A stretch of DNA of 64,000 nucleotides from Candidatus Marinacidobacterales bacterium (GCA_965219415.1 CBDCNP010000001.1:64001-128000), one strand, 5' to 3'. Positions 1 to 33,389 are shown, numbered from the stretch's first letter. The notes: generated from the sequence alone by a model not told the origin. Numbers and translations are program-made.

Positions 1-92
1 GTGTCCAAAAACACGAACGAACTCACGACCTCGGGCCTTTGGGAAAGTGCAAACTGCTGACCCGCTGGGCGTTCGAGTATTTGGACCAGACG
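1..92. mobile_element. Hybrid mini-element: type A end plus inverted type D end of rve/DDE transposon clade
   Basis: GTGTCCAAAAACACGAACGAACTC at 1 matches the motif at 1900/16371/18238/23381. 43-92 is the reverse complement of the D end at 16043/33123. Confidence 0.7.
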
Positions 93-120
93 AGATCGAG
101 AGCAGCGACGGAGTCTACCG

Positions 121-1142
121 CTAGTCTTCCAGAGCCCGTTTCGTGGCGGCGAGATTCTTCTCGTGCCCGATCACGACCAAGGTATCTCCTGCGCTCAGTG
201 CTTGCTCCGGCCCAGGGTTGAATACCATCTTTCCGTCGGTAGGTTTGACAGCGCGACGACCGTAACGCCGAAGCTCGTGCGCAAGTCCGCCTCGCCGAGG
301 CTTCGCCCCGCGATTTTGGCGTGTTCACCGATACGCGCCTCACCTAGGTTTATCTCAAGCGTGGCTCGGTCGGCGACGTGGTCCATGAACTGCAGAATCG
401 TCGGAGCCATCGCCGCCTGAACGATTCGATGGCTCGCGAGCCGGTACGGGGAGAACACCTCGGTCGCACCGGCGCGACGGAGCTTCAGCTCACCACGCTC
501 GTCGAGCGTCCGCGCAATGATGCGCACGGACGGGTTTAGCGCCTTGGCCGTCACCGTGACGTAGAGGTTGTCGGCATCCGAGGGGAGTAGGGCAAGGACG
601 GCGGCGGCCTTCTGGACGCCGGCGTTGAGGAGAGCCTCGTCCGACGTCGCGTCCTCCAGAAGATACAGGTAACGAAGCTCCCGGAGCGTCGGCTCTCTCG
701 AAGCGTCCGACTCGATGATGCAGAACGGGTGGTTCTTATGATCGAGATCCTCGGCGACGGACCTCGAGAAACGGCCGAACCCACACAATACGTAGTGATC
801 GACGAGTTCGTTCAGCTCTTTCCGCATTCGTCTCCTTCCTAGGTTCCCAAACAGCTCTCCCTCGAGGACGACCTGCCCCAGTTGGGTGAGCGTATAGATG
901 GACAACGAGAGCCCCCCTACGATTAGAAAGCTCGCGAAGAGCTTCCCGGGTGCCGAAAGGGGTTGCACTTCGCCGTATCCCACCGTGGAAATTGTGATTA
1001 CCGACATGTAGAGGGCGTCTGTCCAACGCCAGCCTTCGATCCAGGCGAAGCCCAGTGAGCCTACGAACGTCCAGATCAGCATCGCCATCACGCCGATGAC
1101 AAGACTGCGCTGGGTCCATTCGATGCTTCCAGCAGACTTCAA
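121..1142 (-). pseudogene. Potassium channel (2TM pore + TrkA-N/TrkA-C RCK domains), frameshift near 250
   Basis: TVGYG selectivity filter and CGFGRF NAD-binding motif. The C-terminus (KPTDGKMVFNPGPEQALSAGDTLVVIG...) continues in another frame to a stop at 121. Confidence 0.85.
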
Positions 1143-1271
1143 TGGCGGTTACTCTGGTTCGTGCGAATACCGCCACAGGTACTGTCAAATTGAGGTCTTG
1201 AACTCGAAGCGGGCCGCTCGATAATGGGGCTCGAGCGCACCGCGTTGCCAACATCTTGGGGTCGGATCGGC

Positions 1272-1449
1272 TGTGCCTTCTATTTATTCATCCGCGCGCC
1301 CCGAACTTGATCGGTCTCCGGTCTCCCGGGACCATGCCTGCATGATCTCGTCGTTTGTTCGCGCTCGGCCCTTGGCACGGCCGCAAACACAGACACTAAG
1401 TTGCTGATTCATGGGCTATTTCAAAAGGGCCGAGTTTTGGCACAGGACG
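1272..1449. mobile_element. 178-bp hybrid MITE (type C left end + inverted type B end)
   Basis: Starts TGTGCCTTCTATTTATTCATCCG and ends GAGTTTTGGCACAGGACG. An inverted copy lies at 10984-12422, split by IS3. Confidence 0.8.
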
Positions 1450-1570
1450 GGGAGCAACGGGACTCGGGGGCAACCACCAAGCCTCGCCACGACGTCTGGG
1501 CCGTGGCGGGGTTGTGCCACGAGCCCGTGGCGAGCACAGCGATCCATACGGGAATGGGGAAGTGTCGCAT
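1450..1570 (-). pseudogene. 5' stump of a secreted protein, possibly HNH/DUF1524-type nuclease
   Basis: RBS GAGAGG then MRHFPIPVWIAVLATGSWHNPATAQTSWRGLVVAPESRCSP, cut at the B end. The family guess rests on recall of the WRGLxVAPExRCSP motif. Confidence 0.4.
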
Positions 1571-1686
1571 CTTATCTTACCTCTCACAGGCTATGCCGTC
1601 GTTCTCTCGGTCGATTGCGCGCGATGGAGACGCGCATATCGCGGTCCTCCACCTAGTAGCGTACAGCGGCGAAGAATGGAACTCGG

Positions 1687-1934: not shown

Positions 1935-2523
1935 GCCTGGGCTGCAACAAGCAGGTGCAGATGGCTAAACAGCCTGGAGGGCATAAGTGGCCAGCCCGAT
2001 GGCCGCCACATGGTCGTTGCCCCCAACGACCTCGAGCCGGCAGGTGGCGAGCGAGCGTCCCTTGCGGACCGACCTCTCCGATGGCGACCAGGTCTCCCTG
2101 GACTCCCGCCAGCAAGCTCATCTTGAACTCCACCGTCTTGACCGTGGAGCCCAGCGAGACCGAACCCACCGCGAAGTTACCCGCCGTGTCCGCCAGCAGA
2201 CTGATGAGACCCCCGTGGATGACGCCATGCCTTTCTTCGAACTCGGCCCGAAACGGCAAACGCGCGCGCGCCACGCCGTTTTCGCAATAGCTGAGTGTCA
2301 TGCCCAGGTAGCGGCTGATCGGAGCCGCCTCGAAGAGTTGTTTGAGTTTTTCGAGATGCGCGGAACGTTCCGTCGTTTCACCCGCCCGCTGGTGGCGGAC
2401 ACTTTCGGGCAGAGGAACCGGCACCGGCTTGGATTCATTGCGGGGAGCCGAACGAGGCCGTGCAGCGGCTTTCTTGCTAGCAGGCCTCGAAAGGATGTCT
2501 CTCTTCCTTGGTCCTTCTTTCAT
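1935..2523 (-). pseudogene. PaaI-family (hotdog) thioesterase, frameshifted near the 3' end
   Basis: GVIHGGLISLLADTA motif and TVEFKMSLL strand. GRKGRSLATCRLEV continues in another frame. Confidence 0.75.
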
Positions 2524-2740
2524 ATCGAGACACGCTCCACGATGTTGCGAGTGACGTGCTGTCTACGCAGGTCATAGAACTGTGTGGCCCGAGGGGTTGG
2601 AGTGTCCGGCCAGATACTGCACGTCCTCCAGGGGCACGTTCTGGCTGAGTATATCCGTGATCTCCATCACGCGGATGAATAAATAGAAGGCACACCCGCC
2701 CGGAGTTGCGTCTGATTCCCAAGCTCAGGCGATACACCCA

Positions 2741-3184
2741 TCAGGGCAACCTTGTGCCATTCCTCGGAGGAGGCGTGGGTAGCATCGCCCAGCTAATGCA
2801 CCGCTCGGCATCATCAAGCCAACTTGCCGCACCGGGATCCTTAAGCAGGGGTAGTCCAAGCTTGACCAGACAACAAGGCAAGTCCAACTCCTCCGGTAGC
2901 TCCGTCCCCAACCAGCGCACGCCCTTTGCTGCGCCCTCAATCGTCCAGGCTGTCACGCACTGAACCATGACCCGGTGCTCGGGTCCCTGGATGAGCCACC
3001 CCACTGCGCCGACCCAGGTGTTCCTGATGCTTAGAAAGTATTCAGGGAATCCGGGTAACGGCACCGCTTGCCCGCCGGTGGCCACCTTGATGATGGACTG
3101 CAACGCAGCCAATGTCTCGGAGCTAACATCCGAGCGTGGCATCTGGAACACGTGGTGCGTCGATAGGTTGTAGTGGTGCATCAT
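2741..3184 (-). CDS. Hypothetical protein
   Basis: Protein-like 3' part of ORF 2741..3436; no recognised motif. Confidence 0.4.
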   Translation of the reverse strand: MMHHYNLSTHHVFQMPRSDVSSETLAALQSIIKVATGGQAVPLPGFPEYFLSIRNTWVGAVGWLIQGPEHRVMVQCVTAWTIEGAAKGVRWLGTELPEELDLPCCLVKLGLPLLKDPGAASWLDDAERCISWAMLPTPPPRNGTRLP

Positions 3185-3402
3185 CGACTCGCTGGCGAAG
3201 GAATGTCCAAGGGTAGCAACCCGTTCGCCAACATCTCCCTCGCCCGTTGGCTCCTCCGGCCGAATTGGTGGGGGCTCTGGAACCTGCAATGCTTTGGTTT
3301 CCGTCGGATTCTCAGTGTCCGCCTTCGCCCGCTTTTTACGCCGGGCACGTCGCCAGCGTGCATCCGTCGTTCGGTAGGACATTCCGAGGCGTCGCTTGTG
3401 AG

Positions 3403-3611
3403 CTACTTCTTCGGTGAGACGACGGCGTCCAGGCAAGCTTTCGCTACTCGAAACTTGACCACCGTCTTTTTCGGGATTCGAATCTGTTCGCCGGTCCGGG
3501 GGTTGTGTCCCTTGCGCGCCTTTCGTTGCGCCTTCACGAGTTTTCCAATTCCGGGAATGATGAACTGGCCCGTCCGCTTCGTCTCCTTCGCCGCGAGATC
3601 CGCAATCGACT
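3403..3611 (-). pseudogene. hup: HU-family DNA-binding protein, 5' truncated by IS1
   Basis: PGIGKLVKAQRKARKGHNPRTGEQIRIP; paralog of 18574..18891; cut at the IS1 IR at 3612. Confidence 0.85.
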
Positions 3612-4811
3612 GGTGCTTCCGCAATTAAGTGTTGGCGGCCAGCCCCTAACCGGTCTGCGTGCTAGAGTTTGAACCAGAATTCCGAAGACACAGTTCTCTC
3701 ATCGTCAGGGCCGAGCCAAAGTGAAGAATCGCAGATGTCTCAATCTCGCATGTCCGTTGCGGGGCAAAGTCAGTTCCGGAAACATCGTTCGCCACGGATT
3801 CTACCGAACCAGGTCCGGGAAACGCCGTCGATACCGGTGCGGCGAGTGCGGAAAGACGTTCTCCTCGACGAAAGGCACGCCCTACTACCGTCTCCAACAT
3901 CGAAGAGCTACTTTCGATGGGGTCATCGCTCTCAGAGTCGAGGTTGTCAGCATTGCTGCGATTTCCCGGATCAAAGGGATTGCCTGGAACACCATCGCCC
4001 GCTGGCTCGAGAAGGCAGCCCAAGTGTGTCGTCGATTCAATCACAGAAGGATCGCCGGCTTCGCTGCCGAAGAGCTTCAAGCCGACGAGATTCGCACGTT
4101 CGCGGGCAACAAGAAGACGCCGAGTTGGGTCTTCGTTACGATCGAGGTCTGGTCTCGGCTCTGGCCATCGACGGTGACGGGAAGGCGAAGCTACCGGAAC
4201 ACTCACGCTCTGTTTCGCGACCTTTCGAGGCGGATGAATTTCGAGCGTCTTTCCTTGATCGTCACGGATGGATTCGAATTCTACCAGAAGGTCATCCGTC
4301 GCTTCTTCGGTCCAGCGTGTCTCTACGGCCAGGTCCTCAAGACGCGCAGGAACGATCGTATCATCAAGGTCGAACGGAGAGCGCTGCACGGAGCCGCGTG
4401 GCGATTCGAAGACGCGCTCAATAACTCCGAGGACTCCTCAACATTGAACACGTCGTTCATCGAGCGGTTGAATCTGACCATCCGGCAAAGCTCGGCATAC
4501 CTTTCAAGACGAACACTTTCCCACGCTCGCTCGACGGAGAGGCTCGATGAGCACCTGGAGTTGCTCCGTTGCTATTACAACTTCGTCCGACCGCACGGAG
4601 CTCTGAAGTTCGGACGTGAGATCCGAACTCCGGCTATGCAAGCCGGTCTGACCACGCGACGGCTCACCTTTCGAGACATCTTCTTGGCGACGACGATTCC
4701 TTTGTGGTCGCGGATCGAGGTTTTCCTGCTCACTGGGGCGCGCAACCCGGTCTCTTCCGCACCTGTACCACTGTCCGCAGCCGCGTAGCAACACTTGATG
4801 GCGGAAGCACC
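3612..4811 (+). mobile_element. IS1-family insertion sequence (1200 bp)
   Basis: IRs GGTGCTTCCGCAATTAAGTGTTG / CAACACTTGATGGCGGAAGCACC; no target duplication visible. Confidence 0.9.
3721..4788 (+). CDS. IS1-family transposase (single ORF)
   Basis: Zn ribbon (CLNLAC...CGECGK), HTH and DDE motifs ADE / TDG / IERLN. Confidence 0.88.
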   Translation: MKNRRCLNLACPLRGKVSSGNIVRHGFYRTRSGKRRRYRCGECGKTFSSTKGTPYYRLQHRRATFDGVIALRVEVVSIAAISRIKGIAWNTIARWLEKAAQVCRRFNHRRIAGFAAEELQADEIRTFAGNKKTPSWVFVTIEVWSRLWPSTVTGRRSYRNTHALFRDLSRRMNFERLSLIVTDGFEFYQKVIRRFFGPACLYGQVLKTRRNDRIIKVERRALHGAAWRFEDALNNSEDSSTLNTSFIERLNLTIRQSSAYLSRRTLSHARSTERLDEHLELLRCYYNFVRPHGALKFGREIRTPAMQAGLTTRRLTFRDIFLATTIPLWSRIEVFLLTGARNPVSSAPVPLSAAA

Positions 4812-5368: not shown

Positions 5369-6808
5369 GGAGTCAAGCCCATTTTTAGTTGAAATTTTCC
5401 ACGGCTCCCGGTTCGTTTAAGCAACGTTCTTCCTCGACGTATTCTTTTTCGCGGTCTCGATCTTCAGTTCACGCTTGAGCGCTTCACGCAGCTTTGGAAG
5501 GTGTCGGTAGCCCATCACCTTCCGGAGGCGCGGCTCGATGTCGGTGAGCGCGGTCGCGAGCCAGCGTTGGCGTTGGTTCGAAGTCTTCCAGTGATCGACC
5601 TTCGCGCAACGTTCCTCGATAAGCGCATTGACGGACTCGATGCAGTTCGTCGTCTTTAGTGAGTGACCGAGCACCCCGTACACGCCAAGACGATGCAAGG
5701 TCAGGGTCTCCTCCAGCCTCTCTTCGAGGCTAGAGGCCGCAGACTGATTCCTCTCTTCCAGCTCGCGGTGGAGTTGCTCGAGGGCCTCAAGCGCCTCCTT
5801 GTGCGTCGGCCGGCCGTACGCGCGCTGCAGCCGCTTGCGCCACAACGACTGCTCGCTCTTGGACAAATAGCTCACGACATTCTCTCGTTTGTGCCACTGG
5901 CAACGGCCCACGACGACCCGCCTGCGAAAGGCCTTGGTCACGGCTCCTCGCAGCCCCTTGCTGCCGTCGATGACCACCAGCAGCCCTTCAGAGATATCGA
6001 GACCCCGCTCGACCAATGAACGCAGGAACGGCCTAAGAACACGCTCGTTCTCAGTGTCTGTCTCCACGAAGCCGAGGAAGCGTTTGTCCCCGGATAACGT
6101 GATGCCGAGAGCCACCACCATCGTCGCGTCGGCGAACGTCTTGCCGTCCAGGACCATCGCCACCACGTCCTCACCCGAGAGATCACGCTCCTGCATCTCA
6201 CGCAGCTTCGCTGCGCTTGCTTCGACGAAGCCGCGCGACACCGACGAACTCGACAGACCGATCGCGCCCGGGACCAATTCCGACGCCGACTCATGGTTCC
6301 GGCACGAGATCCCGTACAGCACTCTTCGTAGAACCAACTCGTCCACCTCTCCGCGGTGACTCAGACTCTCGTACGAGCTCAACGGGATCTCTCCGTCGCG
6401 GCCGCGAACACGGGGAACGCGGATCGGAACTCGCTGACCCGCGAGTTTCACCGTGCCCGGATTCGTCCCGTGACGTCGTCCCTGCACCGTCTCCGATTTC
6501 CGAACGTATCGCTCTCCCGCAAGCTCACTGACCTCGGCGTCCAGCAACTCGTGAACATGCATCAGGCCGAGAGGCACCAGTGCGCGGATCATCTCGACCT
6601 TCGAGTCCACCTCGAGCTCCCCGTATCCCTCTTGCTCCATGACCTCTACTTCACCTAGACGACGCGTCTTCTTGCCTTCCTTGACCCTTCGTAGCAGACT
6701 TCCCATATCGGCTCCTTTCTTGAGCGGCTTGATTTCGCTTTTGACAACGTCATCAAACCACCCGAGAGGGAGCCGTTTCAAATTTCAACTAAGAGTGGCA
6801 CACATTCC
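5369..6808 (-). mobile_element. IS256-family insertion sequence
   Basis: IRs GGAGTCAAGCCCATTTTTAGTTGAAATTT and GGAATGTGTGCCACTCTTAGTTGAAATTT; abuts a truncated IS1. Confidence 0.88.
5417..6706 (-). CDS. IS256-family (Mutator-like) transposase
   Basis: LDG, VIDGSKGL, RCQWHKREN and TTNCIES motifs; AAGGAG RBS before ATG at 6706. Confidence 0.9.
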   Translation of the reverse strand: MGSLLRRVKEGKKTRRLGEVEVMEQEGYGELEVDSKVEMIRALVPLGLMHVHELLDAEVSELAGERYVRKSETVQGRRHGTNPGTVKLAGQRVPIRVPRVRGRDGEIPLSSYESLSHRGEVDELVLRRVLYGISCRNHESASELVPGAIGLSSSSVSRGFVEASAAKLREMQERDLSGEDVVAMVLDGKTFADATMVVALGITLSGDKRFLGFVETDTENERVLRPFLRSLVERGLDISEGLLVVIDGSKGLRGAVTKAFRRRVVVGRCQWHKRENVVSYLSKSEQSLWRKRLQRAYGRPTHKEALEALEQLHRELEERNQSAASSLEERLEETLTLHRLGVYGVLGHSLKTTNCIESVNALIEERCAKVDHWKTSNQRQRWLATALTDIEPRLRKVMGYRHLPKLREALKRELKIETAKKNTSRKNVA

Positions 6809-7117
6809 CCATCGAAAGTAGCTCTTCGATGTTGGAGACGGTAGTAGGGCGTGCCTTTCGTCGAAGAGAACGTCTTTCCGCACTCGCCGCACCGGTATCG
6901 ACGGAGTTTCCCGGACCTCGTTCTGTAGAATCCGTTGTGAATAATACTTCTGGAACCGACTTTTCCATACGACGGACATGCGGGATTGAGACATCTGCGA
7001 TTCTTCACTTCGGCTCGGCCCTGACGATGAGAGAACTGTGTCTTCAGAATTCTGGTTCAAACTCTAGCACGCAGACGGGTTAGGGGCTGGCCGCCAACAC
7101 TTAATTGCGGAAGCACC
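6809..7117 (-). mobile_element. Truncated second copy of the IS1 element (left end + 5' transposase)
   Basis: Reverse complement closely matches 3612-3921. Confidence 0.88.
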
Positions 7118-7241
7118 GGTTGATGGCGAAAACTTTCAGTGCGGGCACGTTATTGGCCTCTCCGAAATCTTCAACCATGGTCGCCAGATCGCGGAGCTCG
7201 GACAGCCGGACGGGTAGTGTGACACGTAATTCATCAGACAT
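7118..7241 (-). pseudogene. Anti-sigma factor / RsbW-like HATPase, 5' stump
   Basis: AAGGAG then MSDELRVTLPVRLSELRDLATMVEDFGEANNVPALKVFAIN, directly after a PP2C phosphatase and cut by IS1. Confidence 0.6.
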
Positions 7242-7338
7242 AGTGTTGGTTGCTCCTTGACGATTTAAGCCGTTCTAACCTCCACAGCATTCCGCGTGCG
7301 ATCACGCAGGGAAACGAACCTTCACGATTCCGTGAAGC

Positions 7339-9840
7339 TCAGCGGCGCCGCAGGACGAGGCAGGTCATGTCGTCGTCGGCCGCGGTGCCGGCCGAGAAGT
7401 TTCCGATCCGGTCCCAGACATTGTTCACGATGTGCTCCGGCGATTGCCGCGAAGAACCGTCCAGCGTTCCCTCCAGCCGCTCCTTGCCGAACAGCTCGCC
7501 GTTGCCGTTCGTGGCGTCGGTGAGGCCGTCGGTATACATGAACAGTGTTTCTCCCGGCTGAAGGACCTCATGTCCGCTCGAGTAGTCAAAGTCCTCCAAC
7601 AAACCCATCGCGAGTCCGCCGGTCAGGGCGAGCGCCCGCCTGGAGTCGTCGGCACCTATCACAAACGGGGGCTCGTGCCCGGCGCAGACGTAGTCGACCG
7701 CGCCGTTTTCGAGGTTGACCATGGCGAGCATGCAGGTGACGAACATACCCATCGGGTTCTGGCTGCACAGACGGCGGTTCGTGTCCTCGGCGATCGCGGC
7801 GACCTCGGCGGCAATCGTGGCGATATCGGCGCGCCCGAGGAAAGCGGACTTGACCGCCGACTGGGACGCCGCCATGAACAGGGCCGCGGCCACCCCCTTG
7901 CCCGAGACGTCGCCGATGGTGAAGAACAGCATCCCGTCCGACGGCCCCACGACATCGACGAAATCGCCACCCACTTGCTTCGCCGGAGTCATCCGCGCGT
8001 AGGCGGAGAAGGGGCCCAACTCGGCGCCCCCTTCCCGCACCAAAGCGTGCTGCACGAGCTTCGCCATCGCCAGATCCTCTTCCATGGCTTCATGTGCCAT
8101 GCGCAATTGATGGTTGCTATGTTGCAGCTCCCGGGTCCTTTCCGAAACCAGCGTCTCGAGCTGTTCCTCACGGTTGAAGACCTGGACCGTCATGTCGCTG
8201 AAGACGCGCGCCAGGCTGCCGATCTCGTCGGATCTGCGCATCACCGGTTCCATGACGCCGGAATCGGGTTGTTCTCCGGTTTCCACCTGCCGAGCGGCGT
8301 CGGCGATGATTTCGATCGGATGCGTCAGCAATCGCGAGCCGAAGAGCGCAGCCACGGCGGTGAGACCGAGCAGCGCGAACGCAATCAGGGCTGTGTTTCG
8401 CGCTTCGCCGCGCACCGCGAGCGCGATGTCGTCTAGACTGACGGCAACGGCCAGGCCGCCGATCAGGATCCCACCGGTGTTGACGATCGGGGATGCGACC
8501 ACGATGCCGCGGTCATCGGGTGAGAACAGACTCAGACTCGCCCTGCTGACCACGCTTTCCTGGGCCAGCGCATTTTCCATGATCCCTTCGCCGCGGCGCT
8601 CGAAGATCCCCGCCGTGTCGACGATCTCGTCACCGGTTTGCATCTCGGCGCGCGGCGCAACCGCGGCCAGCTCACCCTCGAGATTGACGATCCAGAGCGC
8701 CTGGAGGTTTCGGGAACGGACCAGGATGTCGGCCTGCTGCTGGTAGACCGAGTAGAGCAGGTTGCCCGCACTGCTTTCGATGGGCACGCCGACCTGGATC
8801 AGGCGCGACGAGTCCCGGCTGGCCCTTGTGACGTACTTGTAGACGGTGCCGTCGGAGGCGCGCGGCGATGTCGGGTGCTCGGCCACCGGCTCCAACCCGT
8901 CCAGCAGGGCGCCGAGGTCCTCGAAATGCGGCGTGTCGGCCAGAGACCGGTCCGCCCCGCCGGGAGGGAAATTGGAATAGATTGTGCCGCGCCTGGAGTC
9001 GACGATGCGAATCTCTCCGATGGTGGTGGTGTCGACGATGCGCCGCAGCCGGAGGTCGATCTCTTCGGTCGTCCACTCGGCCGCCTCCGCGGTGGAAATA
9101 AAGTAATCCAGAATCGTGGTCTGCACGGTCATGTGCTGGCCCAGGATACCTTCGATCACGGCCGAGACGTCAGGTCGCTGCGAGGCATAGACATTCCTCA
9201 GGAGCTCCTGATCGCCGAACACCAGAGCATCCCCGACTTGCACGATCCTCGGCTGGTCGACGCCGCCGACGCCGACGTACTTGAAAACCTGTTGGTTGAT
9301 CTCCCGCACCTGCGCCGGCTGCGTGATGAAGTCATCGCCGTCGAGGGGCGCCATCAGCAAAGTGTAGAACTTGGATGCCTGCGGCTGCACCGCGGGATCG
9401 GGATCGAACTGGAAGGGCACCAGCGCGCCGGTTTCATCCCGGACATTAGTGAGATAGGAGAAACCCTGATCGTCGGTGATCCAGAACTCGTCGAGCACCG
9501 TGTCCCGGACGATCGCTTCAAGGATCTCGATGATCCGGGGCGGGTCGTATCCGGCGGCTTCGGCGGCGTCGACCATGTGAGCGACAATGCGCGCCTGGGC
9601 CGTCATCGGCTCGTCGAGCGTGGAATCCAATGTCCGCGCGACATTGGCCAGCGAGATCTCGCCCATTTCGGCAAAGGTTCCCGAAATCAACTCGGCCAGA
9701 TGCACGGCCGCGATTTCAGCTTCGTCGCGCAAGGCCGTCCCGGAATTGTAAAGCAGGGTAGCCGAGGTCGTCAGGATCGCGACCGACAGCAGTCCCGCCA
9801 GGGCGATAAACACGCGGACCGCCAGGCGCAGATCCTTCAT
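7339..9840 (-). CDS. Membrane PP2C/SpoIIE-type (RsbU-like) phosphatase with HAMP and duplicated extracytoplasmic sensor
   Basis: Two TM segments, HAMP (RSDEIGSLARVF), VGGDF, GDVSGKGV, AGHEPP, YTDGLTD and DDMT motifs. Confidence 0.92.
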   Translation of the reverse strand: MKDLRLAVRVFIALAGLLSVAILTTSATLLYNSGTALRDEAEIAAVHLAELISGTFAEMGEISLANVARTLDSTLDEPMTAQARIVAHMVDAAEAAGYDPPRIIEILEAIVRDTVLDEFWITDDQGFSYLTNVRDETGALVPFQFDPDPAVQPQASKFYTLLMAPLDGDDFITQPAQVREINQQVFKYVGVGGVDQPRIVQVGDALVFGDQELLRNVYASQRPDVSAVIEGILGQHMTVQTTILDYFISTAEAAEWTTEEIDLRLRRIVDTTTIGEIRIVDSRRGTIYSNFPPGGADRSLADTPHFEDLGALLDGLEPVAEHPTSPRASDGTVYKYVTRASRDSSRLIQVGVPIESSAGNLLYSVYQQQADILVRSRNLQALWIVNLEGELAAVAPRAEMQTGDEIVDTAGIFERRGEGIMENALAQESVVSRASLSLFSPDDRGIVVASPIVNTGGILIGGLAVAVSLDDIALAVRGEARNTALIAFALLGLTAVAALFGSRLLTHPIEIIADAARQVETGEQPDSGVMEPVMRRSDEIGSLARVFSDMTVQVFNREEQLETLVSERTRELQHSNHQLRMAHEAMEEDLAMAKLVQHALVREGGAELGPFSAYARMTPAKQVGGDFVDVVGPSDGMLFFTIGDVSGKGVAAALFMAASQSAVKSAFLGRADIATIAAEVAAIAEDTNRRLCSQNPMGMFVTCMLAMVNLENGAVDYVCAGHEPPFVIGADDSRRALALTGGLAMGLLEDFDYSSGHEVLQPGETLFMYTDGLTDATNGNGELFGKERLEGTLDGSSRQSPEHIVNNVWDRIGNFSAGTAADDDMTCLVLRRR

Positions 9841-10377: not shown

Positions 10378-10553
10378 GTCCAATGGTGTTCGAACGGATT
10401 CATGATTTCAAAACTGCTCATGCGAGATAATCAACCTGTCTACTTTTCCTGGGCAAGGTTAAACTATCAGAGAAGCCATTAAGGGTATCGTCTCAAGGGG
10501 AGGACCGTCTATTTCAAAAGGGCCGAGTTTTGACACAGGACGGGAGACTAACA

Positions 10554-10649
10554 ATGAACACTATCAGCACATTAGAGCTTTGTGCCGGAGCCGGCAGCCA
10601 AGCGCTCGGCCTGTTCCAGGCCGGCTCCCTTCGATCTCTTCATCAATAA
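10554..10649 (+). pseudogene. C5 DNA cytosine methyltransferase N-terminal stump
   Basis: MNTISTLELCAGAGSQALGLFQAG matches SAM-binding motif I of C5 methyltransferases; stops after 31 codons. Confidence 0.6.
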
Positions 10650-10661
10650 GGGGGAGAAAGC

Positions 10662-12614: not shown

Positions 12615-12719
12615 GGTTCGGATTGACCGATCGGTCCGCCGCCTGCTAGCCTCCCACGCGATCTACGTCGATCCGGACACAGGGACCCGCATGCGGGGCG
12701 GAGCAGCGGCGGTACGCCA

Positions 12720-23357: not shown

Positions 23358-23510
23358 GTTGAGGCATTCAGGGCCGACCGCGTCGTGTCCAAAAACACAA
23401 ACGAACTCAAGCCCGGCGCGCCGGGCCGTTTCGGATTAGCTCTACGTCCCGAACTCTCGGTCGACGAACCGCGTCGTGTCCGAAAATGCGAACGGAGCCG
23501 AAATCTCGAA

Positions 23511-23681
23511 TGGGCCGGGCTCGCTGAACTCCTCGGCGATCACGAGAGTGTCAGGTGACACCTCAGTCACTTGATCCCGCAACAACCTCTGCAGGTCCGC
23601 CCGCTCTCCGAGACCAGCTGTGCCGAAGGACGTTTCCTCGACCTTTCTCAACTTGTCTGCGCTCACTTCGTAGATGGCCAT
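23511..23681 (-). pseudogene. NucS/DUF91-like endonuclease 5' stump
   Basis: MAIYEV...SFGTAGLGERADLQRLLRDQ...LVIAEEF; cut by a type A right-end remnant. Confidence 0.6.
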
Positions 23682-23745
23682 GGATTTCTAGAGGCATTTT
23701 AAAGCAGCCTGCTGCTAGAATGCTCGCGATGTCGAGAGGGTAAAG

Positions 23746-24114
23746 ATGAACAAGAAGCTCGTTGGGTACTGGGTGACGACCGCTTTGTTCTGCTTGGTCA
23801 TGACGGCCGACGGCGTCGCGAGCCTGCTGCGTATCGAGCAGCAGCAAGCCATCATGGAAGTCCTCGGCTACCCGCCATATCTGATGACGCTCCTCGGCAT
23901 CCTCAAGCTCCTGGGAGTCGTCGCTCTTCTCGCACCTGGTTTCGCGCGTCTCAAGGAGTGGGCCTACGCTGGATTCAGTTTCGACCTCATTGGAGCCGCG
24001 TTCTCGTTTGCCGCGGCGGGAGATCCGACCCCGGCGGGCATCGCGCCTCCCTTACTCATCCTGGCCGTGGTAGCTGTGTCCTACGTCCTGCGACCCGAGT
24101 CGCGGCGGCTCTGA
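23746..24114 (+). CDS. DoxX-like family membrane protein
   Basis: LGYPPYL...LGILKLLG...LKEWAYAGF. Confidence 0.9.
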   Translation: MNKKLVGYWVTTALFCLVMTADGVASLLRIEQQQAIMEVLGYPPYLMTLLGILKLLGVVALLAPGFARLKEWAYAGFSFDLIGAAFSFAAAGDPTPAGIAPPLLILAVVAVSYVLRPESRRL

Positions 24115-24203
24115 CCACTGTCTCGGCGCTCGCTTCGACGCCGTCCAGCCGCTAGAATTTTCCCTCCACCCGATTCCGCCGATCTTCTTTTTTGCGGATC
24201 ACA

Positions 24204-24630
24204 CCAGAAAAAGACAGTCCAGCCGTGCATGAAGTCGAGATCCTCTCGGCCCACCCAGTTGCTGAGAGGTCCGATCGCCGCGAGATACTGGCCGAGACTG
24301 GTCACGGTGCCGGTGACAATGTCGAGCGTCGTCGGTCCGACCGTCAGCATGAACGCCAGCAGTAGCAGGGCGAGCAGCAGGTTGGCCTCTCTCAGCCGCT
24401 TGACCCCCTTCTCCTCCCGCTAACAACCGACGCCAACGCCATGCTGGTAATGCCGACGATCAGCAGCACCTGGGTGGTGGTGGTGTTGGTCGCCGGCGCG
24501 CCCAACAGGTGGGCCAGCCCCGCCGCCGCCTGTTGGGCACCCAGGCCGAGCGACGTGGCCAGCCCAAAGAGCGTGGCGAAGACGGCGAGGGTGTCGATGC
24601 CGTGGCCGAACCGGCCCCACACCGCATCCC
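24204..24630 (-). pseudogene. BCCT (betaine/carnitine/choline) transporter internal fragment
   Basis: IDTLAVFATLFGLATSLGLGAQQ and WTVFFW; bounded exactly by E and C ends; frameshifted. Confidence 0.85.
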
Positions 24631-24793
24631 TGTCCCTTCCATAAACTCGAGCTGCATGAGATTGGCGAACTGCCTGCAACCAGGATGCTAGGGTCGTCTT
24701 CATGTAGGACGTTTTAAGAGCCGGCGTCGGCTCTACTCAGGGGTAGAGGTGTAAGCTGGTGCGAAGTCCGGCAGCCGTTCCGAGCGGATCGGC

Positions 24794-25813
24794 TCAAGCA
24801 GCGCGTCGAGTGTAATGATGATGGAGACCACCGACCTTTGGAATGGCTCTCACTTTGCCCATCGCCGGTGACTCTACCCGGCGAGGCTCGGGCGTGTCCT
24901 TCTCAAGCGACAAATGAGTCCGGCACGAATGATAGTAGTCGACGTATTTGCGTAGGATTCGCCTCAGGTGCCGCTCGTCGAGGACGATCACATAGTCGAG
25001 ACACTCACCTCGAATGGAGCCGAGCATCCTTTCGACCAATGGATTCTGCCACGGGGAGCGCGGTGCGGTAAGGACCTGCTCCATCCCAAGACCGTCGACG
25101 CGACTGTTGAAGTACGCTCCGTAGGTCTGGTCTCGACCCCGTACCAGGTACTGAGGCGCCGTGTCCCATGGAAAAGCATCGACCATTTGCTGCGCCGTCC
25201 ACTCGGCAGAAGGATGTTCGGTGACATGGAAATGAACGATACGGCGACGCTCGTGGCGAAGGACGATGAAGACGAACAGAACTCTGAAGGTTGCGGTCGG
25301 CAAAGTGAAAAAGTCGAGCGACACCAAGTCCTTTGCATGATTATCGAGAAAGCTCCGCCAAGTATGGGACGGTGGTGTGCGATGGCGAACCATATACTTG
25401 GAGACGGCAGCCTGGGAAATGGAGATGCCCAGCTTCGCCAGCTCGCCATGCACGCGGGGAGCTCCCCAGAGTGGGTTGGCCCTGCTCATGTTCCGTATCA
25501 GCTCACGTATTTCGGGAGCGACGCCTGGTCGTCCAGGCCTACGCCGTCGGCTCTTCCAAGTCCAATATCGTCTGAATCCACAACGGTGCCAGCGGACGAC
25601 CGTCTCAGGTTTCACGATGACGAGGACGCTCTCCCAGTCAGTCCAGATTCTGCGCAACAGCACCCAAAACCCGCGGTCGACCTTCGAGAGCCGCGGCCGT
25701 TTCACGGACCGGCGGAGGACGGCGAGCTGCTGCCGAAGAGCGACATTCTCGAGAGCCAGCTCGCGACGAGCCTTGAAAGCAGAGATGAGAGCGGGAACCA
25801 ATGACGAAATCAT
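24794..25813 (-). CDS. Integrase-core (rve) DDE transposase, probably inactive (RDRD to RGRD)
   Basis: NPLWGAPRVHGEL HTH, SLDFFT, YLVRGRD and NPLVER motifs; the second copy retains RDRD. Confidence 0.88.
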   Translation of the reverse strand: MISSLVPALISAFKARRELALENVALRQQLAVLRRSVKRPRLSKVDRGFWVLLRRIWTDWESVLVIVKPETVVRWHRCGFRRYWTWKSRRRRPGRPGVAPEIRELIRNMSRANPLWGAPRVHGELAKLGISISQAAVSKYMVRHRTPPSHTWRSFLDNHAKDLVSLDFFTLPTATFRVLFVFIVLRHERRRIVHFHVTEHPSAEWTAQQMVDAFPWDTAPQYLVRGRDQTYGAYFNSRVDGLGMEQVLTAPRSPWQNPLVERMLGSIRGECLDYVIVLDERHLRRILRKYVDYYHSCRTHLSLEKDTPEPRRVESPAMGKVRAIPKVGGLHHHYTRRAA

Positions 25814-25874
25814 GCCGGCATAGTGCTGGCAGACCGGAGACTAATCAAGTTCGGTGCGCGCGGATGAATAAATA

Positions 25875-27259
25875 GGGTCTACGCGGATTCGTGTGGGTTG
25901 AAAACTGCATTTCTGGGTAATAGCGGAAGGAAAGCCGCCACGATCTTCAGCTTGAGATATTCCTCGTCGCGATAGCCGTAGGCGCGTCGTTGCAGAACAC
26001 GGATTTTGTTGTTGACCCCTTCAACTAGGCCGAGACTGACTTTGTTCTCCGGATGACAGTAGGAGGCGATACCATCCCAATGGGACTCAATCATACCGGC
26101 GAACTTCTGGTACGGATGCAGGCGTTGCCATTTGAGGCTGTCTTTTCCAACGGGTGAAAAAGGCGCGAGCGCCGCGTTCGGTGCGGTAATCCCAGAGTTG
26201 CCCGAAGGCCTCCTTCAAAATATAGGCGGTGTTCAGGCGCCGGTTGGCCTGGAGCAACTTTTTGAGTGCGCGGCAACCGTCTAGGCTCAGGTTCTCCCGC
26301 CGGGAAAGCAAAGTGTAACGCTGCCCCTTGATGTACGACCGGTCCTTGCCGCTGAGGCGTTTGTACTCACCGCGCCGGACCTCATCGAGGGCCTTTGACA
26401 GATGACGCATGATATGAAACTTGTCGAAGATGATCCGCGCATTAGGCGCGTTGTGAATCACCGAGTTCCGGAAGGGCTTCCACATATCCATGGCGGCCAG
26501 CTTGATACGGGCGCTTTTCTTTCCGCCCAGCGCCTTGAAGAACAAATCGATGTCGGTTTCTTTGCGACCCTCACCGCCCACCCAGATGGGACGCGCCCGC
26601 TCCAGGTCGCTGACAATGACGCGATAGTTATGTCCCTTGCGGATGGAGATCTCATCGACACCGATGGCCCGAGGCGCCGGTAGCCCCGCCCGGTCGACCT
26701 GCTCTTGCATGTAGAGCGTATCCAGAGCCTTCACCGTACCGTGGTGCAGACGTTCCATCTCGGCCACCGCCTTGTTCGGCATATCCCGGCACAGCTTGCC
26801 CACATGCGTCGCAAAACGCTGGGTGTAGCGCGAGTTGTTCGCCAGCCAGTCTAGGTGTTCTACATGCACACCGCCGCACCCAGAACAGTTGACGCGCCAA
26901 CGCTCGTATTCCAGATAGATCCGCCAGCCTGCCAACGACAGGTCGCGGACCCGGCACACTTGCTTGTCACAGCGCCCCCGGCACCGTTGCCCACAGTAAG
27001 AGCACACAGCTGTTTTTTTCGCCTCTTGAGCTGGATGACACGGGCGTATCGGTCACCGAATAGACCCTTCAATCCGGCACCAACCACGAAACCTGGCAGC
27101 GCAAACAGCGAGCGGATCGACTGGGAATTTTTCACTCGGTTAGCCTATCCTAAAAATGGACCACTTTTCAGCACCTGATGAAGTACTCGATACCTTTTCC
27201 ACACAATGAGTTACACTGTTTTTCCGTCAGAACTTACCCACACGAATCCGCGTAAACCC
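25875..27259 (-). mobile_element. ISL3-family element, 1385 bp, 8-bp target duplication AATAAATA
   Basis: IRs GGGTCTACGCGGATTCGTGTGGG / CCCACACGAATCCGCGTAAACCC. Confidence 0.95.
25879..27135 (-). pseudogene. ISL3 transposase split over three frames
   Basis: Zn finger, IGVDE, MDMW, DKFHI and VEGVNNKI motifs; A7 slippery site near 27015 and a further shift near 26140. Confidence 0.88.
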
Positions 27260-27622
27260 AATAAATAGAAGGCACACCCGACGGATAGAGGCGTTAAGAT
27301 CTACACAGGGGTTTCCCCGCGCACTTGGAAGCGCACCAAGGTCAGCAGTCTGGTCGCAGCTCCGACGACAACCCAGGAACTCAGGGACGACGACTCCTCG
27401 ACCCTCAGCCACGCGGCCAGTGTCGCGGCAGCCAGCCCGAAGGCAATGCCGTGAGCCATGCCGGGCTGTACGCGGTATGATGCTCGGTGCCGACCTCTCC
27501 GCATCATCGACAGGTCCCATTCCAGAGTCCGCATCCGAACTCGTCGAGTCGGTCTATGGAGGAACGGTGAAATGGTACTGCGATGGGCTGCCCGCAGGAA
27601 ACGCTAGAGAGAGAACCTTACT

Positions 27623-27806: not shown

Positions 27807-28573
27807 ACCAATGGATTCTGCCACGGGGAGCGCGGTGCGGTAAGGACCTGCTCGATCCCGAGACCGTCGACGCGAGTGTCGAAGTACGCTCCGTAGGTCT
27901 GGTCTCGATCCCGTACCAAGTACCGAGGCACCGTGTCCCATGGAAAAGCATTGACCATTTGCTGCGCCGTCCACTCAGCAGAAGGATGTTCGGTGACATG
28001 GAAATGAACGATACGGCGACGGTCGTGGCGCATGATTATCGAGAAAGCTCCGCCAAGTATGGGACGGTGGTGTGCGATGACGAACCATATACTTGGAGAC
28101 GGCAGCCTGGGAAATGGAGATGCCCAGCTTCGCCAGCTCGCCATGCACGCGGGGAGCTCCCCAGAGAGGGTTGGCCCTGCTCATGTTCCGTATCAGCTCA
28201 CGTATTTCGGGAGCGACGCTTGGTCGTCCAGGCCTACGCCGTCGGCTCTTCCAAGTCCAATATCGTCTGAACCCACAACGGTGCCAGCGGACGACCGTCT
28301 CAGGTTTCACGATGACGAGGACGCTCTCCAGTCCAGATTCTGCGCAACAGCACCCAAAACCCGCGGTCGACCTTCGAGAGCCGCGGCCGTTTCACGGACC
28401 GGCGGAGGACGGCAAGCTGCTGCCGAAGAGCGACATTCTCGAGAGCCAGCTCGCGACGAGCCTTGAAGGCAGAGATGAGAGCGGGAACCAACGACGAAAT
28501 CATGCCGGCATGGTGCTGGCAGACCGGAGATTAATCAAGTTCGGTGCGCGCGGATGAATAAATAGAAGGCACA
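27807..28573 (-). mobile_element. Second, internally deleted and truncated copy of type C rve element
   Basis: Colinear with 25035-25874, with deletions and frameshifts; intact left terminus at 28573. Confidence 0.9.
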
Positions 28574-29635
28574 GGGTACCGATCCGTGTGCCACGGGTTC
28601 GGAGCATCGAGGGAGGAGAGATTCCGCTTCGCTGCTACGAGGCGGTGAGCCACGGCGGTGAGGTGAATGATCTTCTGCTGAAACGAGTTCTCTACGGAAT
28701 CTCTTGTCGCAACTACGAGGCGGCAGCGGAAGCGATTCCGGGCGCCATCGGGCTGTCGAGCTCAACGGTGTCCCGAGGGTTCGTGCAAGCGAGCGCTGCG
28801 AAGCTGCGGGAGATGCAGGAACGGGATCTGACCGGCGAGGATGTGGTGGCGCTGTTTCTGGATGGGAAGACATTCGCCGAGGCAACGATGGTCGTGGCTC
28901 TGGCCATCACGCTTTGCGGGGAAAAACGCTTCTTGGGCTTCGTGGAGACGGACACGGAGAACGCGCAGGTGTTGACGCCGTTCCTGCGTTCACTGCTCGA
29001 GCGGGGACTCGATATCTCCCAGGGTCTGCTGGTGATCATCGACGGCGGCAAGGGTCTCCAAGCGGCAGTCAAGAAGGCATTCCGTAAGCGGGCCCTGATA
29101 CAACGCTGCCAGTGGCACAAACGTGAAAACGTAGTGAGCTACCTGTCCAAGGGCGAGCAGGCGTCATGGCGCAAGCGGCTCCAGTGGGCCTACAACAGGC
29201 CGGAGTACGAAGAGGCCCTCACTGCGCTCGAGCAACTCCACGGTGAGTTAGAAGAGCGGAACCAATCCGCAGCTGGCAGCCTGGAGGAAGGCCTCGAGGA
29301 GACGCTGACGTTGCATCGACTCGGCGTGCACGCGGTGCTGGGCCGTTCGTTCAAGACGACGAACTGCCTTGAGTCCGTCAATGCTCTCGTCGAGGAACGC
29401 TGCGCGAAGGTCGACCACTGGAAGAACTCGAGCCAACGCCAGCGCTGGTTGGCAACGGCGCTCGTAGACATCGAACCGCGCTTGAGGAAGGTGGTGGGCT
29501 ACCGCCATCTTCCCAAGCTTCGCGAAGCTCTCAAGAGGGAACTGAAGATCGAGGCGAAGACATCAACCGTATCGAAGAAGAAGGTCGCTCAAACGTGAGC
29601 CGTGGAGAGTTTCAACTAAGAATGGGCTTGACTCC
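28574..29635 (+). mobile_element. IS256-family element, 5' truncated by the type C end
   Basis: Transposase 28588..29598 is paralogous to 5417..6706; right IR TTTCAACTAAGAATGGGCTTGACTCC. Confidence 0.88.
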
Positions 29636-30699: not shown

Positions 30700-31045
30700 G
30701 GACACATTTCTCCTCTCGATTCGCAGTCCAAACGAACCTATTGTGTTAAACGAACGTGCCAAGGCGTGCCCCGCCGATGACTTTTCGGCTACTGGCTACT
30801 TGCTCCGCCCTAGATGTCATAGTGAAGAGCGAAATCGGCCGGATGCGGACACAGACGGACATAGTCGACTTCCCGCTCGCTTGAAAGAGTTGCACCTTCC
30901 CTAGTTCCACCCGTCCATGCGATATAGGCGACGACAGGTCTACCGCTCGAGAGCGACAACCGGGCCGATTGCAGCATAGCCATTGCGGCTTACCCTCCCA
31001 ATGTGCAAGTCCACCCTTGTTTTATGCTGTCCCCCACCGGTCCCA

Positions 31046-32350
31046 CTACGAGGTGTAGCCGCGCTCTCCGTGGGACTCGAAATCGAGACCTTCGGCTTCC
31101 TCCTTCTCACTGACCCTGAGTCCGACCATCGCACGCGTCAGGAGAACGATCAACCAGGTTGCCAGCACCGACCATACGACCACCACAACAACTCCCGTCG
31201 CTTGAGAGATAAACTGAGAAACGATGCCGTTTTCGAGGCCCAATCCGCCAAACGTCTCGGCGCCCAGCACCGCCACCAGGAGCGTGCCGAGTATTCCGCC
31301 CACGCCGTGGACGGCAAATACATCCAGGGAATCGTCCACTAATAATCGGCCCAGGACAAACCGGGTCGCATAGTAGCAAAGGATACCGCCCAGTATCCCG
31401 CAAACAAGGCCCCCGGCAGGCCCTACGTAACCCGCTGCCGGCGTCACCGTGGCGAGTCCCGCTATGGTGCCGGTTGCCGTTGCGATTAGACTGGGCTTGC
31501 CGGAGTGGCACCACTCCAGAGCCATCCACACGAGAGAAGCGGCGGCGGCCGCAATAAGGGTCGCCACTAAGGCTAGGCCCGCGTTGCCGTTCGCTGCCAA
31601 CGCGCTTCCAGCGTTGAATCCAGACCAGCCGACCCAAAGCAGTGAAGCGCCGATCACGGTCAAGATGGGATTATGGGGCGGCGTCAGCTTATCCGGAAAA
31701 CGGAGCCGTTTACCCAGCATCAAGGCGATCACGATCGCCGAAACGCCGGCCGTGGTATGAACGACAAGCCCACCCGCGAAATCGAGCACGCCGCGCGTTG
31801 CCAGAAAACCTCCGCCCCATATCCAATGGGTCACCGGCGAGTAGACTAGAATCCCCCATAAGCCGCTAAACAGCATCACATGGGCGAACTTGATCCGTTC
31901 CGCGTAGGCACCTGCGATCAAGCCGAGCGTAATGATGATGAATGTCATCTGAAACGTGAAGAAGACCGACTCCGGGATCGTTCCGACTAAGGCATCGGCA
32001 CCGACACCGGCGAGAAACGCTTTTTCCAGCCCGCCGATCCAGGCGTTGGCCTGCCCTCCGTCTCCGAACGCTAGGCTGTAACCGACAGCGAACCATAGTA
32101 CCGACGCGAGGCATGCAATCGCGTAACAATGGATTGACGTGGAAATTACGTTGACCGAGCGGACGAGACCAGCATAAAACAAGAGCAGCCCCGGCAACGT
32201 CATCATCAGCACCAGTACGGAAGAGACGATGACCCACGCGGTGTCCCCGCTGTCCAGCCCTTCAGCTGCCAGTGATAACCGGGGGAACAGGCAAACGGCA
32301 AATGTGAGAATAAAAATCCGGCAACACCATCGGCTCAATATAGCACTCAT
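31046..32350 (-). CDS. amtB: Ammonium transporter
   Basis: DSGDTAW, FQMTF, AERIKF, DFAGGLVVH, GFNAGS and DDSLDVFAVHG motifs. Confidence 0.95.
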   Translation of the reverse strand: MSAILSRWCCRIFILTFAVCLFPRLSLAAEGLDSGDTAWVIVSSVLVLMMTLPGLLLFYAGLVRSVNVISTSIHCYAIACLASVLWFAVGYSLAFGDGGQANAWIGGLEKAFLAGVGADALVGTIPESVFFTFQMTFIIITLGLIAGAYAERIKFAHVMLFSGLWGILVYSPVTHWIWGGGFLATRGVLDFAGGLVVHTTAGVSAIVIALMLGKRLRFPDKLTPPHNPILTVIGASLLWVGWSGFNAGSALAANGNAGLALVATLIAAAAASLVWMALEWCHSGKPSLIATATGTIAGLATVTPAAGYVGPAGGLVCGILGGILCYYATRFVLGRLLVDDSLDVFAVHGVGGILGTLLVAVLGAETFGGLGLENGIVSQFISQATGVVVVVVWSVLATWLIVLLTRAMVGLRVSEKEEAEGLDFESHGERGYTS

Positions 32351-32865
32351 TTGACTTCCTTTTCGATGTCGTTTCCACGCTCAGCACTGGCTCCAAGAGT
32401 ATCACTGGTTCCAAGGGTATCAAAAGAGGGCCACTGAAAGCAACTTTGCCGGAACCGAACGGGAAAGAGCACCGCGCGCCCACAAGGGCGTAGAAAAACG
32501 GGTGCCGTTGTAAAGCGTGGGTGATATCGTGGAGTGGCTACGCGAGCGGGACGCCGTGAAGCTGGAACGGCAAAGACGCGCCGTGATGCTCCTAGTGTCG
32601 GTATCCAGCCGCGACATTCGTGAGTGCGACGTGCGTCACTTCCCCAGCAAGATCCGGCCCGACACGTTTCCTCTCGAATGTCATCATCGCGATTTCGGCC
32701 GCATGTCCGAGTTCGTTCCGCGATCGAATCGCAAGGTCAAGAGCCGCAGGTGATGTCTTGCCGGCTGAATCGCGCGCTGCAGAATAGACCCAGACATGCT
32801 GGCTCGAGTTTATGGAAGGGACAACCCACCGGCCGCTCATCGCGGGCTCGTTGAGGCTCGTTCGC

Positions 32866-33057
32866 CTACGGCGTCAAAGAGTCCGTGAGTGTGGCCCCAT
32901 ACTCGCCGAGTTGGGCCCACAGCGCTGCCAGGTCGATCCCAGACGTGGTCGCCAGAAGGAGAGCGATTCCGACCGCTGCCAACACCACCAGTCCGCGCCA
33001 CCTCAGCGCTACGCCGAGTACAACACCTGCCGCCACTCCCGCGAGAAACATCGCCAT
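32866..33057 (-). CDS. Small hydrophobic hypothetical protein
   Basis: Two hydrophobic segments in ORF 32866..33111. Confidence 0.3.
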   Translation of the reverse strand: MAMFLAGVAAGVVLGVALRWRGLVVLAAVGIALLLATTSGIDLAALWAQLGEYGATLTDSLTP

Positions 33058-33122
33058 GGACTTGCCCACTTGAGCCGATCGCTGGCAGTCTACACTCATG
33101 GTCAGAGCCACGCCAAACTACC

Positions 33123-33389
33123 CGTCTGGTCAAAATACTCGAACGCCCAGCGGGTCAGCAGTTTGCAGCTTTCCAAGGACCCGTCGTGTCCAAAAACACA
33201 AACGATAGCGGCCTGTTGGTCACGCTGGAGCCAACCAGCGATGGCGACGACCAACCATGTCCAGGGCTGGCTCTGCCTCCTCATGACCGAGGATTCTAGC
33301 TTCCATTGGTCCAACCAAGCCTCAGACGTCTCTGATCCGAAACGTCCCGGCGCGCTAGTCTTGAGTTCGTTTGTGTTTTGGACAGGACG
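33123..33389. mobile_element. Type D end followed by a 208-bp unit with two inverted type A left ends
   Basis: CGTCTGGTCAAAATACTC at 33123; CGTCGTGTCCAAAAACACAAACG at 33182; CGTTTGTGTTTTGGACAGGACG ending 33389. Confidence 0.8.

Follow-up and report, generated by a model that had tools for sequence, protein, structure and literature searches.

The stretch of DNA analysed here (the window) comprises 64,000 nucleotides of a Candidatus Marinacidobacterales bacterium (GCA_965219415.1 CBDCNP010000001.1:64001-128000) and forms part of contig C2 (284 kb), one of the three contigs (C1, C2 and C3) of an 8.05-Mb genome. Its left part, up to position 33389, is a patchwork in which forty short terminal motifs of five families (A to E; tips hereafter) separate genes and gene fragments. 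A reading made from the sequence alone (the sequence-only reading) had taken this patchwork for a non-autonomous gene-shuffling system. We find that the tips are the ends of five related insertion sequences (ISs), that this part of the window is not a dedicated gene-capturing device, and that it is probably best described as an IS graveyard in an IS-swollen genome, produced by decay and by the amplification of miniature elements, possibly together with a non-canonical mode of integration. A comparison of tip strands with gene positions places most of the genes between tips that point at them, and hence outside the elements; these genes encode a potassium channel, a D-glutamate cyclase, an MscS-type channel, an MFS transporter and a CBS protein, and there is a fragment of a BCCT transporter gene.

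Motif searches of the window recovered 37 of the 40 listed tips at the same coordinates, with match counts far above expectation for each family: A, 9 against 0.05 expected; B, 8 against 0.03; C, 9 against 0.01; D, 5 against 0.01; and E, 8 against 0.17 (7 of them within 1-33389). Position 13827 is matched by the A and the B pattern alike. The remaining three tips, at 1, about 14170 and 33389, were established via homology to the ends of one of the elements (ISa, below), and all 40 align with the outermost bases, at one end or the other, of one of the five full-length elements taken from contig C3, so that every listed tip is a genuine IS end. Beyond 33389 the sole match of the five families is an E-like site at 36295 with 2 mismatches, and the statement that the tips cease at 33389 is accordingly true for these families. 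The core that all tips had been said to share fared less well: the strict pattern (YGT-N5/6-C-M-W-AAA-M) is far above chance, with 21 matches within 1-33400 where 100 shuffles gave 1.06 on average, but it fits only 21 of the 40 tips and misses the C1, D/D2 and E ends.

When tips were paired genome-wide, recurrent full lengths emerged, and one intact copy of each element was taken from contig C3:

ISa: 1348 bp, A ends
ISb: 1428 bp, B ends, inverted repeats of 80 bp
ISc: 1255 bp, C1 left end and C2 right end
ISd: 1199 bp, D left end and D2 right end
ISe: 1391 bp, E2/E ends

Each element contains one long open reading frame (ORF), 339-393 codons in length, whose product has rve_3 and HTH_32/HTH_21 domains; the five transposases align to each other over their full length. 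Those of ISa, ISb and ISd are 48-49% identical to one another, and those of ISc and ISe are 28-30% identical to these; this split matches that between tips starting CGT (ISa, ISb and ISd, with a weakly conserved AYCC further out) and tips starting TGT (ISc and ISe). The five elements are thereby shown to be related single-ORF DDE (rve) insertion sequences nearest to the IS481 family, and one transposase clade does stand behind the five end families, as had been proposed. Intact sources of transposase are present: all 7 copies of ISd have open 393-codon frames and are 98.2% mutually identical, and frames of at least 364 codons are present in 7 of the 13 ISb copies.

Members of the IS481 family have terminal inverted repeats beginning TGT, according to ISfinder descriptions, and each copy is flanked by a target-site duplication of a few bp. 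ISa to ISe resemble them in having a single ORF with an HTH and an rve_3 core and without a frameshift, a length of 1.2-1.4 kb, terminal inverted repeats, and a transposase C-terminus that runs into the right end; moreover, IS481 (NF033577) is the best NCBIfam model for all five transposases. They differ in scoring 83-105 bits against a cut-off of 224, in that three of the five families start CGT, and in having no target-site duplication. The NCBIfam IS3 model gives 70-85 bits against a cut-off of 160, and the single ORFs lack the IS3 frameshift pair; the IS3 element of the window (11089-12345), by comparison, scores 340 bits. The clade is IS481-like and unclassified, scoring below the NCBIfam IS481 cut-off. 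Relatives in other phyla, at 57-66% identity, have the same end type, CGT-NN-TG(T/G)GCCAAAACTC, so that the CGT start, which the sequence-only reading had remarked on, is genuine and a trait of the clade. The AYCC just outside the CGT, weakly conserved on both sides and also present in other phyla, represents either a soft outer extension of the inverted repeat or a preference for palindromic targets. The transposase family is very common, with at least 8000 relatives (all 8000 scored candidates matched), most of them named 'transposase InsO family'; the records of the closest relatives carry the name of a marine Acidobacteriota order, and PGAP-annotated plasmid relatives (at most 41% identity) are named only 'integrase core domain-containing protein'. 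In those parts of the literature that were accessible, no description was found of this IS481-like clade, of the lineage whose name the relatives carry, or of duplication-free IS481-like elements. CGTC-tagged repetitive extragenic palindromic sequences share a CGTC tag (PMC3733652), a likeness that we treat as coincidence.

When the window is aligned with the five elements and with five further IS types, 14,019 of the first 33,400 bases (about 40%) are assigned to insertion sequences. Of the 40 tips, 39 lie in stumps or in miniature units: apart from one whole ISc, the clade is represented by end stumps 18-330 bp long, a small number of internal fragments and short two-ended units. The patchwork also includes members of the IS3, IS5, ISL3 and IS256 families and IS1-like elements, and complete IS1-like, IS256, IS3 and IS5 elements together with a partial relative of IS256 make up much of the remainder. 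The features are as follows (strand given where assigned):

1-92: A+D mixed-end miniature unit; ISa-like left end 1-30 (truncated where the window begins) and ISd left end 34-92 (element 59 to 1, tip 92)
1272-1449, plus strand: ISc/ISb hybrid miniature, 178-bp form; ISc 1-95 joined to ISb 1345-1428
1788-1936: composite; ISb terminal 23 nt (tip 1810), IS1-like internal fragment of 91 bp (1810-1900), ISa 1-37 (tip 1900)
2677-2694, minus strand: solo ISc left tip, 18 nt, within a multi-copy segment (1940-3598) bearing a hotdog-thioesterase-like ORF
3612-4811, plus strand: complete IS1-like element, 1200 bp, ends GGTGCTTCCGCA
5370-7117, minus strand: complete IS256-family element (5370-6806, transposase 5417-6781) and, abutting it, inverted IS1-like left end (6807-7117)
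10509-10542, minus strand: solo ISb end, 34 nt, tip 10542
10984-12422: ISb/ISc hybrid miniature, halves 10984-11066 and 12346-12422, interrupted by a complete IS3-family element
11089-12345, minus strand: the complete IS3-family element (orfA/orfB), with a 4-5 bp duplication (AATC) inside the hybrid miniature
12426-12614: ISb tip of 18 nt (12426-12443) and ISd right end (ISd 1029-1199, with the transposase C-terminus, tip 12614)
13607-14169: cluster; ISe miniature unit 13607-13686, ISc internal fragment 13686-13823, ISb end 13827-13919, ISa right end 13955-14166 (tip about 14169)
14184-15437, minus strand: MscS-type channel gene, between two tips facing the gene
16043-16925: cluster; ISd 1-329, ISa 1-256, ISe right end 16632-16683, ISb end 16876-16925
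16921-17823, minus strand: MFS transporter stump, cut at an ISb tip
17824-18389: cluster; ISa 1041-1302, inverted ISd right end 18090-18244 (tip 18090), ISa 1-152 (tip 18238)
19061-19242, plus strand: ISc 1-103 and a diverged ISa-like end (19167-19242); mirror image at 22463-22644
20227-20321, plus strand: ISe-derived miniature unit, 95 bp, E+E2 ends
20762-20922, plus strand: E+B mixed-end unit, 161 bp
21207-22293, plus strand: complete IS5-family element, 1087 bp, ends TGCCTTGGTGCA; second copy at 34530-35616
22463-22644, minus strand: diverged ISa-like end (tip 22538) and ISc left end (tip 22644)
23381-23511, plus strand: ISa left end (23381-23439) and inverted ISa right end (23472-23511)
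24180-24203, plus strand: ISe right-end stump, 24 nt, tip 24203
24204-24630, minus strand: internal fragment of a BCCT transporter gene, 427 bp, a tip on each side
24631-27276, minus strand: whole ISc, the sole such case among the IS481-like elements of the window, with a transposase frame of 339 aa (24794-25813) that is open
25875-27259: ISL3-family element that splits the left tip of the whole ISc, with an 8-bp duplication AATAAATA
27807-28573, minus strand: ISc copy without its right part and with an internal deletion (element 849-626 and 549-1, tip 28573)
28576-29634, minus strand: partial IS256-family relative, 77% identical to the copy at 5370-6806
32806-32823, minus strand: solo ISc right tip, 18 nt
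33123-33389: last tip cluster; ISd 1-49, ISa tip of 16 nt (33182), ISa 189-1 (tip 33389)

The unit at 10984-12422, with its B and C1 ends, was considered as a deletion derivative of the IS3 element; since the latter is bounded by TG...CA inverted repeats of its own and by its 4-5 bp duplication, this was rejected. A further IS1-like piece lies at 1686-1778.

Genome-wide, the tip motifs have 1473 matches, of which 8 are on contig C1, 97 on C2 and 1368 on C3, and they are not spread evenly: they are clumped in IS-dense tracts. Contig C1 (2.07 Mb, outside the window) is nearly without elements of the five families, its 8 matches being mostly due to chance; since most of the solo A tips there are chance matches with 2 mismatches, the genome-wide A count is inflated by a few. 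Tips are 4-20 times commoner than element interiors, coverage being about 414-437 at the tips of ISb against 33-50 in its interior, 147 at the left tip of ISc against 7-13, 90 for ISe against 2-7, 167 for ISa against 6-59, and 88 for ISd against 17-34. Repeated exact 20-mers make up 21.5% of contig C3, with 36-58% from 4.2 to 5.7 Mb; for C2 the share is 26.9%, with 41-68% over the first 100 kb, and for C1 it is 8.3%. From the motif counts and the 20-mers together it follows that the left half of the window samples a landscape of the order of 1.5-2 Mb. An excess of ends like that of the IS481-like clade is also seen for the IS1-like element, whose left 90 bp have about 125-140 copies in the genome against about 53 for the interior.

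That ends of different families pair into short units, as the sequence-only reading had supposed, holds well beyond the window. The commonest hybrid joins ISc 1-95 to the final 54 or 84 bases of ISb and so exists in forms of 147 and 178 bp; these hybrids of an ISc left and an ISb right end number 105 intact copies genome-wide, among which 100 left and 95 right flanks are distinct. Further mixed units are D+B (about 309 bp; 11 copies, 11/11 with distinct flanks), A+B (about 123 bp; 9 copies), E+B (150-165 bp; 5 copies) and A+D (96 bp; 3 loci with distinct flanks), and miniatures with two ends of the same family are represented by E+E2 (92-96 bp; 22 copies), B+B (317 bp; 14 copies), A+A (129 bp; 9 copies) and D+D2 (85 bp; 9 copies). 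The 147-bp form has a median pairwise identity of 98.0% over 67 copies, and among 20 relatives 6, from two families, have it at 95-99% identity and with at least 20 matches in each. Hybrid units are therefore found at separate loci whose flanks differ, as well as in six further genomes, and the outcome that the sequence-only reading had named as its own refutation did not occur. We infer that the mixed-end miniatures have multiplied, probably mobilised in trans by the intact transposases of contig C3. From its sixth base the ISb end, TGTGCC..AAAACTCG, resembles the right end of ISc, TGTCCC....ATAAACTCG, which makes it plausible that the ISc enzyme could use a B end.

Four miniatures lying in otherwise single-copy DNA were compared with relatives. 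At all four loci homology of the flank stops at the tip, and no relative has both flanks adjacent. At one of them a same-genus genome is uninterrupted, and the present genome has a 9.7-kb mosaic between two outward-facing ISb tips, with about 1.3 kb of the relative's DNA absent; at another, a relative holds the natural continuation of one flank, a continuation without a match in this genome. As judged from these alignments, the tips at the checked loci are deletion or replacement breakpoints and not simple insertions. Genes in the window have likewise been cut exactly at tips: this is borne out for the MFS and BCCT stumps and for an IS256 fragment, but not for the Mrr and signal-peptide genes that had also been named (the ORF at 10662-11012 has no Pfam match). 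The MFS piece ends at an ISb tip, and two paralogs on contig C3 run past the cut; the BCCT piece is internal to a longer gene, two C3 copies of which run through both cut points. The missing halves of such stumps were sought elsewhere beside matching ends, and they were not found there: a genome search revealed no third copy of the missing BCCT parts beside a matching tip, and no complementary halves for three continuations taken from relatives, the intact or longer paralogs on contig C3 being found instead. As a separate observation, one and the same breakpoint, 16 nt past a stop codon, occurs in three genomes (locus L092, position 700, G000:C3:1856597; L099; L100), where its neighbours are a hybrid miniature, an internal fragment of ISa and DNA unrelated to these; the point may be a hot spot for insertion.

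The scenario that we favour for this part of the window runs as follows. The five IS481-like elements have inserted repeatedly into and beside each other, with loss of adjacent DNA that left mostly short terminal stumps; the genes and stumps between the tips are not cargo but ordinary DNA, of plasmid or chromosome, that insertions on either side have trapped; and two-ended short units, some of mixed family, would have multiplied, probably mobilised in trans by intact transposases encoded on contig C3, which is plausible because the ends of the families resemble each other enough. Integration by the clade would usually destroy one flank, for example through intramolecular or uncoordinated attack by the ends, a supposition drawn from the lack of target-site duplications and from the position of tips at deletion breakpoints. 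A more far-reaching form of the proposal can be put forward only tentatively, and we regard it as rather doubtful: that the clade integrates non-canonically as a rule (single or uncoordinated ends, no duplication, one flank deleted), that sister ends are interchangeable, that mixed-end miniatures multiply on this basis, and that an end-tagged mosaic circulates among distant lineages of the order.

Several results weigh against a history of mere decay and amplification. Duplications of 3-6 bp were sought at offsets of 0-9 on each side of full-length and miniature copies, and in neither were there target-site duplications above noise for any of the five families; among the hybrid miniatures, exact 3-mer flank matches were found at the tips in 2/105 and at no offset in more than 8/105. 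Empty sites were sought among paralogs in a strict and a relaxed version, both of them essentially empty: of 799 tip pairs, 337 of which have both flanks repeated elsewhere, 4 were flagged, and 3 of these were self or adjacent artefacts. Transposition of the miniatures as units is for this reason not demonstrated. The hybrid miniatures are young (98%) and yet none resembles a simple insertion, so that plain old decay is insufficient as an account of them. The lack of duplications is moreover shared by the IS5-like element (29 near-full copies, 99.5% identical, with no duplication of 3 bp or more and empty sites in 0/29) and by the IS1-like element (no duplications, empty sites in 0/31), and the anomaly is therefore not specific to the IS481-like clade, unless the copies of these two elements owe it to boundary error, as they may. 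Finally, many inter-tip segments are shared at 96-99% across families with boundaries at the same tips, and pieces do therefore travel. The flanks in this DNA are not generally scrambled, since ISL3 and IS3 in the same genome keep both marks of simple insertion: ISL3 has 8-bp duplications in 23/41 copies and empty-site paralogs for 5/41, and IS3 has 4-bp duplications in 18/36 and empty-site paralogs for 12/36. A palindromic 2-bp duplication (CG) hidden within the CGT tips was tried as an explanation and does not account for the hybrids, in which no CG follows on the ISc side; it is possible for ISa, ISb and ISd.

The sharing of DNA between genomes can be described more closely. Inter-tip segments have contig C3 paralogs at 97-99.6% identity and copies in the genomes of another family at 96-98%, and ordinary orthologs in other-family genomes align at about 66-80%. 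The segment that holds the MscS gene (13935-15725) is 98.7% identical to C3:4304660-4306446, and the MscS DNA itself (about 14130-15600) has counterparts at 96-98% identity in another family's genomes. Such similarity suggests recent exchange of gene-bearing segments between lineages. In addition, the gene segments 13935-15725, 16921-18089 and 7118-9354 have contig C3 paralogs at 97-99.6%, and 13935-15725, 16921-18089 and 12600-13664 have copies at 92-98% in other genomes, the first two in another family. A 1654-bp block (locus L108, G000:C3:1835178-1839706, positions 2197-3850) begins with an A+A miniature unit and has a counterpart at 99% identity in G018 and another in G014 that reaches as far as an ISb tip. 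Its left neighbour is not the same in any two of these genomes, and it has no outward-facing tip at its right edge.

These shared segments, together with the recurrence of mixed-end units at independent loci and in other genomes, are what speaks for the gene-shuffling model, in which cross-recognised ends move end-bounded segments and captured genes and so build an integron-like patchwork. We nevertheless consider that model very improbable. Most genes of the window lie between inward-pointing tips and not in outward-facing pairs; the shared 1654-bp block itself is without an outward-facing right tip; the BCCT stump is internal to a longer gene, and complementary halves were not found; and there is no unit for which a duplication or an empty site proves movement by transposition. 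Nor is there any sign of an integron-like or otherwise dedicated capture system: the same landscape extends over much of the genome, the inter-tip pieces are gene fragments and not cassettes, and no recombination site, recombinase or capture-platform promoter arrangement was seen among the 30 ORFs scanned (1-33.5 kb), attC-like folds not having been searched for. A composite transposon fits no better, the flanking elements being stumps with their tips facing the genes. Homologous or illegitimate recombination among repeats, combined with mosaic exchange between co-resident lineages and with little part for the transposases, would make the mixed units recombination products spread within larger blocks. 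Interior junctions in mixed units (ISc 95 to ISb 1345 or 1375; ISa 256 beside ISe 1340), modules shared at 94-99% between families in differing order, and the rearranged pieces of the 13.9-15.5 kb segment of the window in G014 are consistent with this, but the many distinct flanks of the 105 hybrid miniatures indicate that the unit itself has spread and not larger blocks, IS3 (1.26 kb, 99.8%, 36 copies) would be a better substrate and has kept its duplications, and the breakpoints are at exact tips rather than at arbitrary points within repeats; on balance we think this explanation unlikely.

An origin of the patchwork in misjoined metagenome-assembled contigs deserves mention, given the extreme repeat content, the reported contamination of the genome (8.45%) and the fact that none of the read-derived contigs listed spans the full 20 kb compared. 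Short-read contigs from other public runs, however, bridge the tips 10542/10984, 12614/13607/13686, 16043 and 24203 with 0-4 differences (in X9, over 10515-11006, 12590-13715 and 15603-16097; in X8, over 12591-13633 and 23548-24233), and the same units and blocks recur in independently assembled relatives, so that an artefact is scarcely credible. One of these runs may be the source sample, and the contigs are too short to speak for the whole assembly, uncovered parts not counting as evidence. Runs that contain only small shares of the window, among them some labelled sponge metagenome, were left aside, and no claim about habitat is made. No claim made here is based on the unpublished genome G007.

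With the IS graveyard as the preferred description, the window can be set beside better-known systems. [quoted passage not shown] In resistance regions, arrays of the IS26 type (IS6 family) consist of whole IS copies, and adjacent deletion cuts genes at the tip. Shared with these arrays are the many IS ends between short gene segments, the tip-exact gene cuts and the copies without matched duplications; here, by contrast, the transposases belong to another family, nearly all tips are in stumps or miniatures, and no translocatable-unit structure was seen. Recently host-restricted bacteria show IS expansion and pseudogene-rich genomes. The present genome resembles theirs in its hundreds of IS copies of several families, dense clusters, gene stumps and breakpoints at IS ends, and differs in that stumps and miniatures exceed whole copies by an order of magnitude and that inter-tip DNA is shared at 96-99% across families. 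For annotation, this means that decayed insertion sequences account for about 40% of a 33-kb stretch and for a large part of an 8-Mb genome, and that gene pieces between tips should be regarded as pseudogene debris. Two features go beyond the ordinary: miniatures with ends from different IS families at more than 100 copies, and a whole rve clade, young copies included, without target duplications in DNA where other IS families keep theirs. If confirmed at the bench, the latter would represent a deletion-prone integration mode for a DDE family common in environmental bacteria, with a bearing on the erosion of symbiont genomes.

Among minor features of the window, a 167-bp repeat (19859-20025 and 20504-20669) has about 183 genomic copies, and relatives contain many at 90-93% identity. 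An Rfam search of the window found no known RNA element at the tips, its only match being a tRNA gene at 52579-52652. The right half of the window, otherwise unique, contains two diverged duplications, 35701-36209 with 38813-39318 (84%) and 39862-40634 with 40838-41610 (78%).

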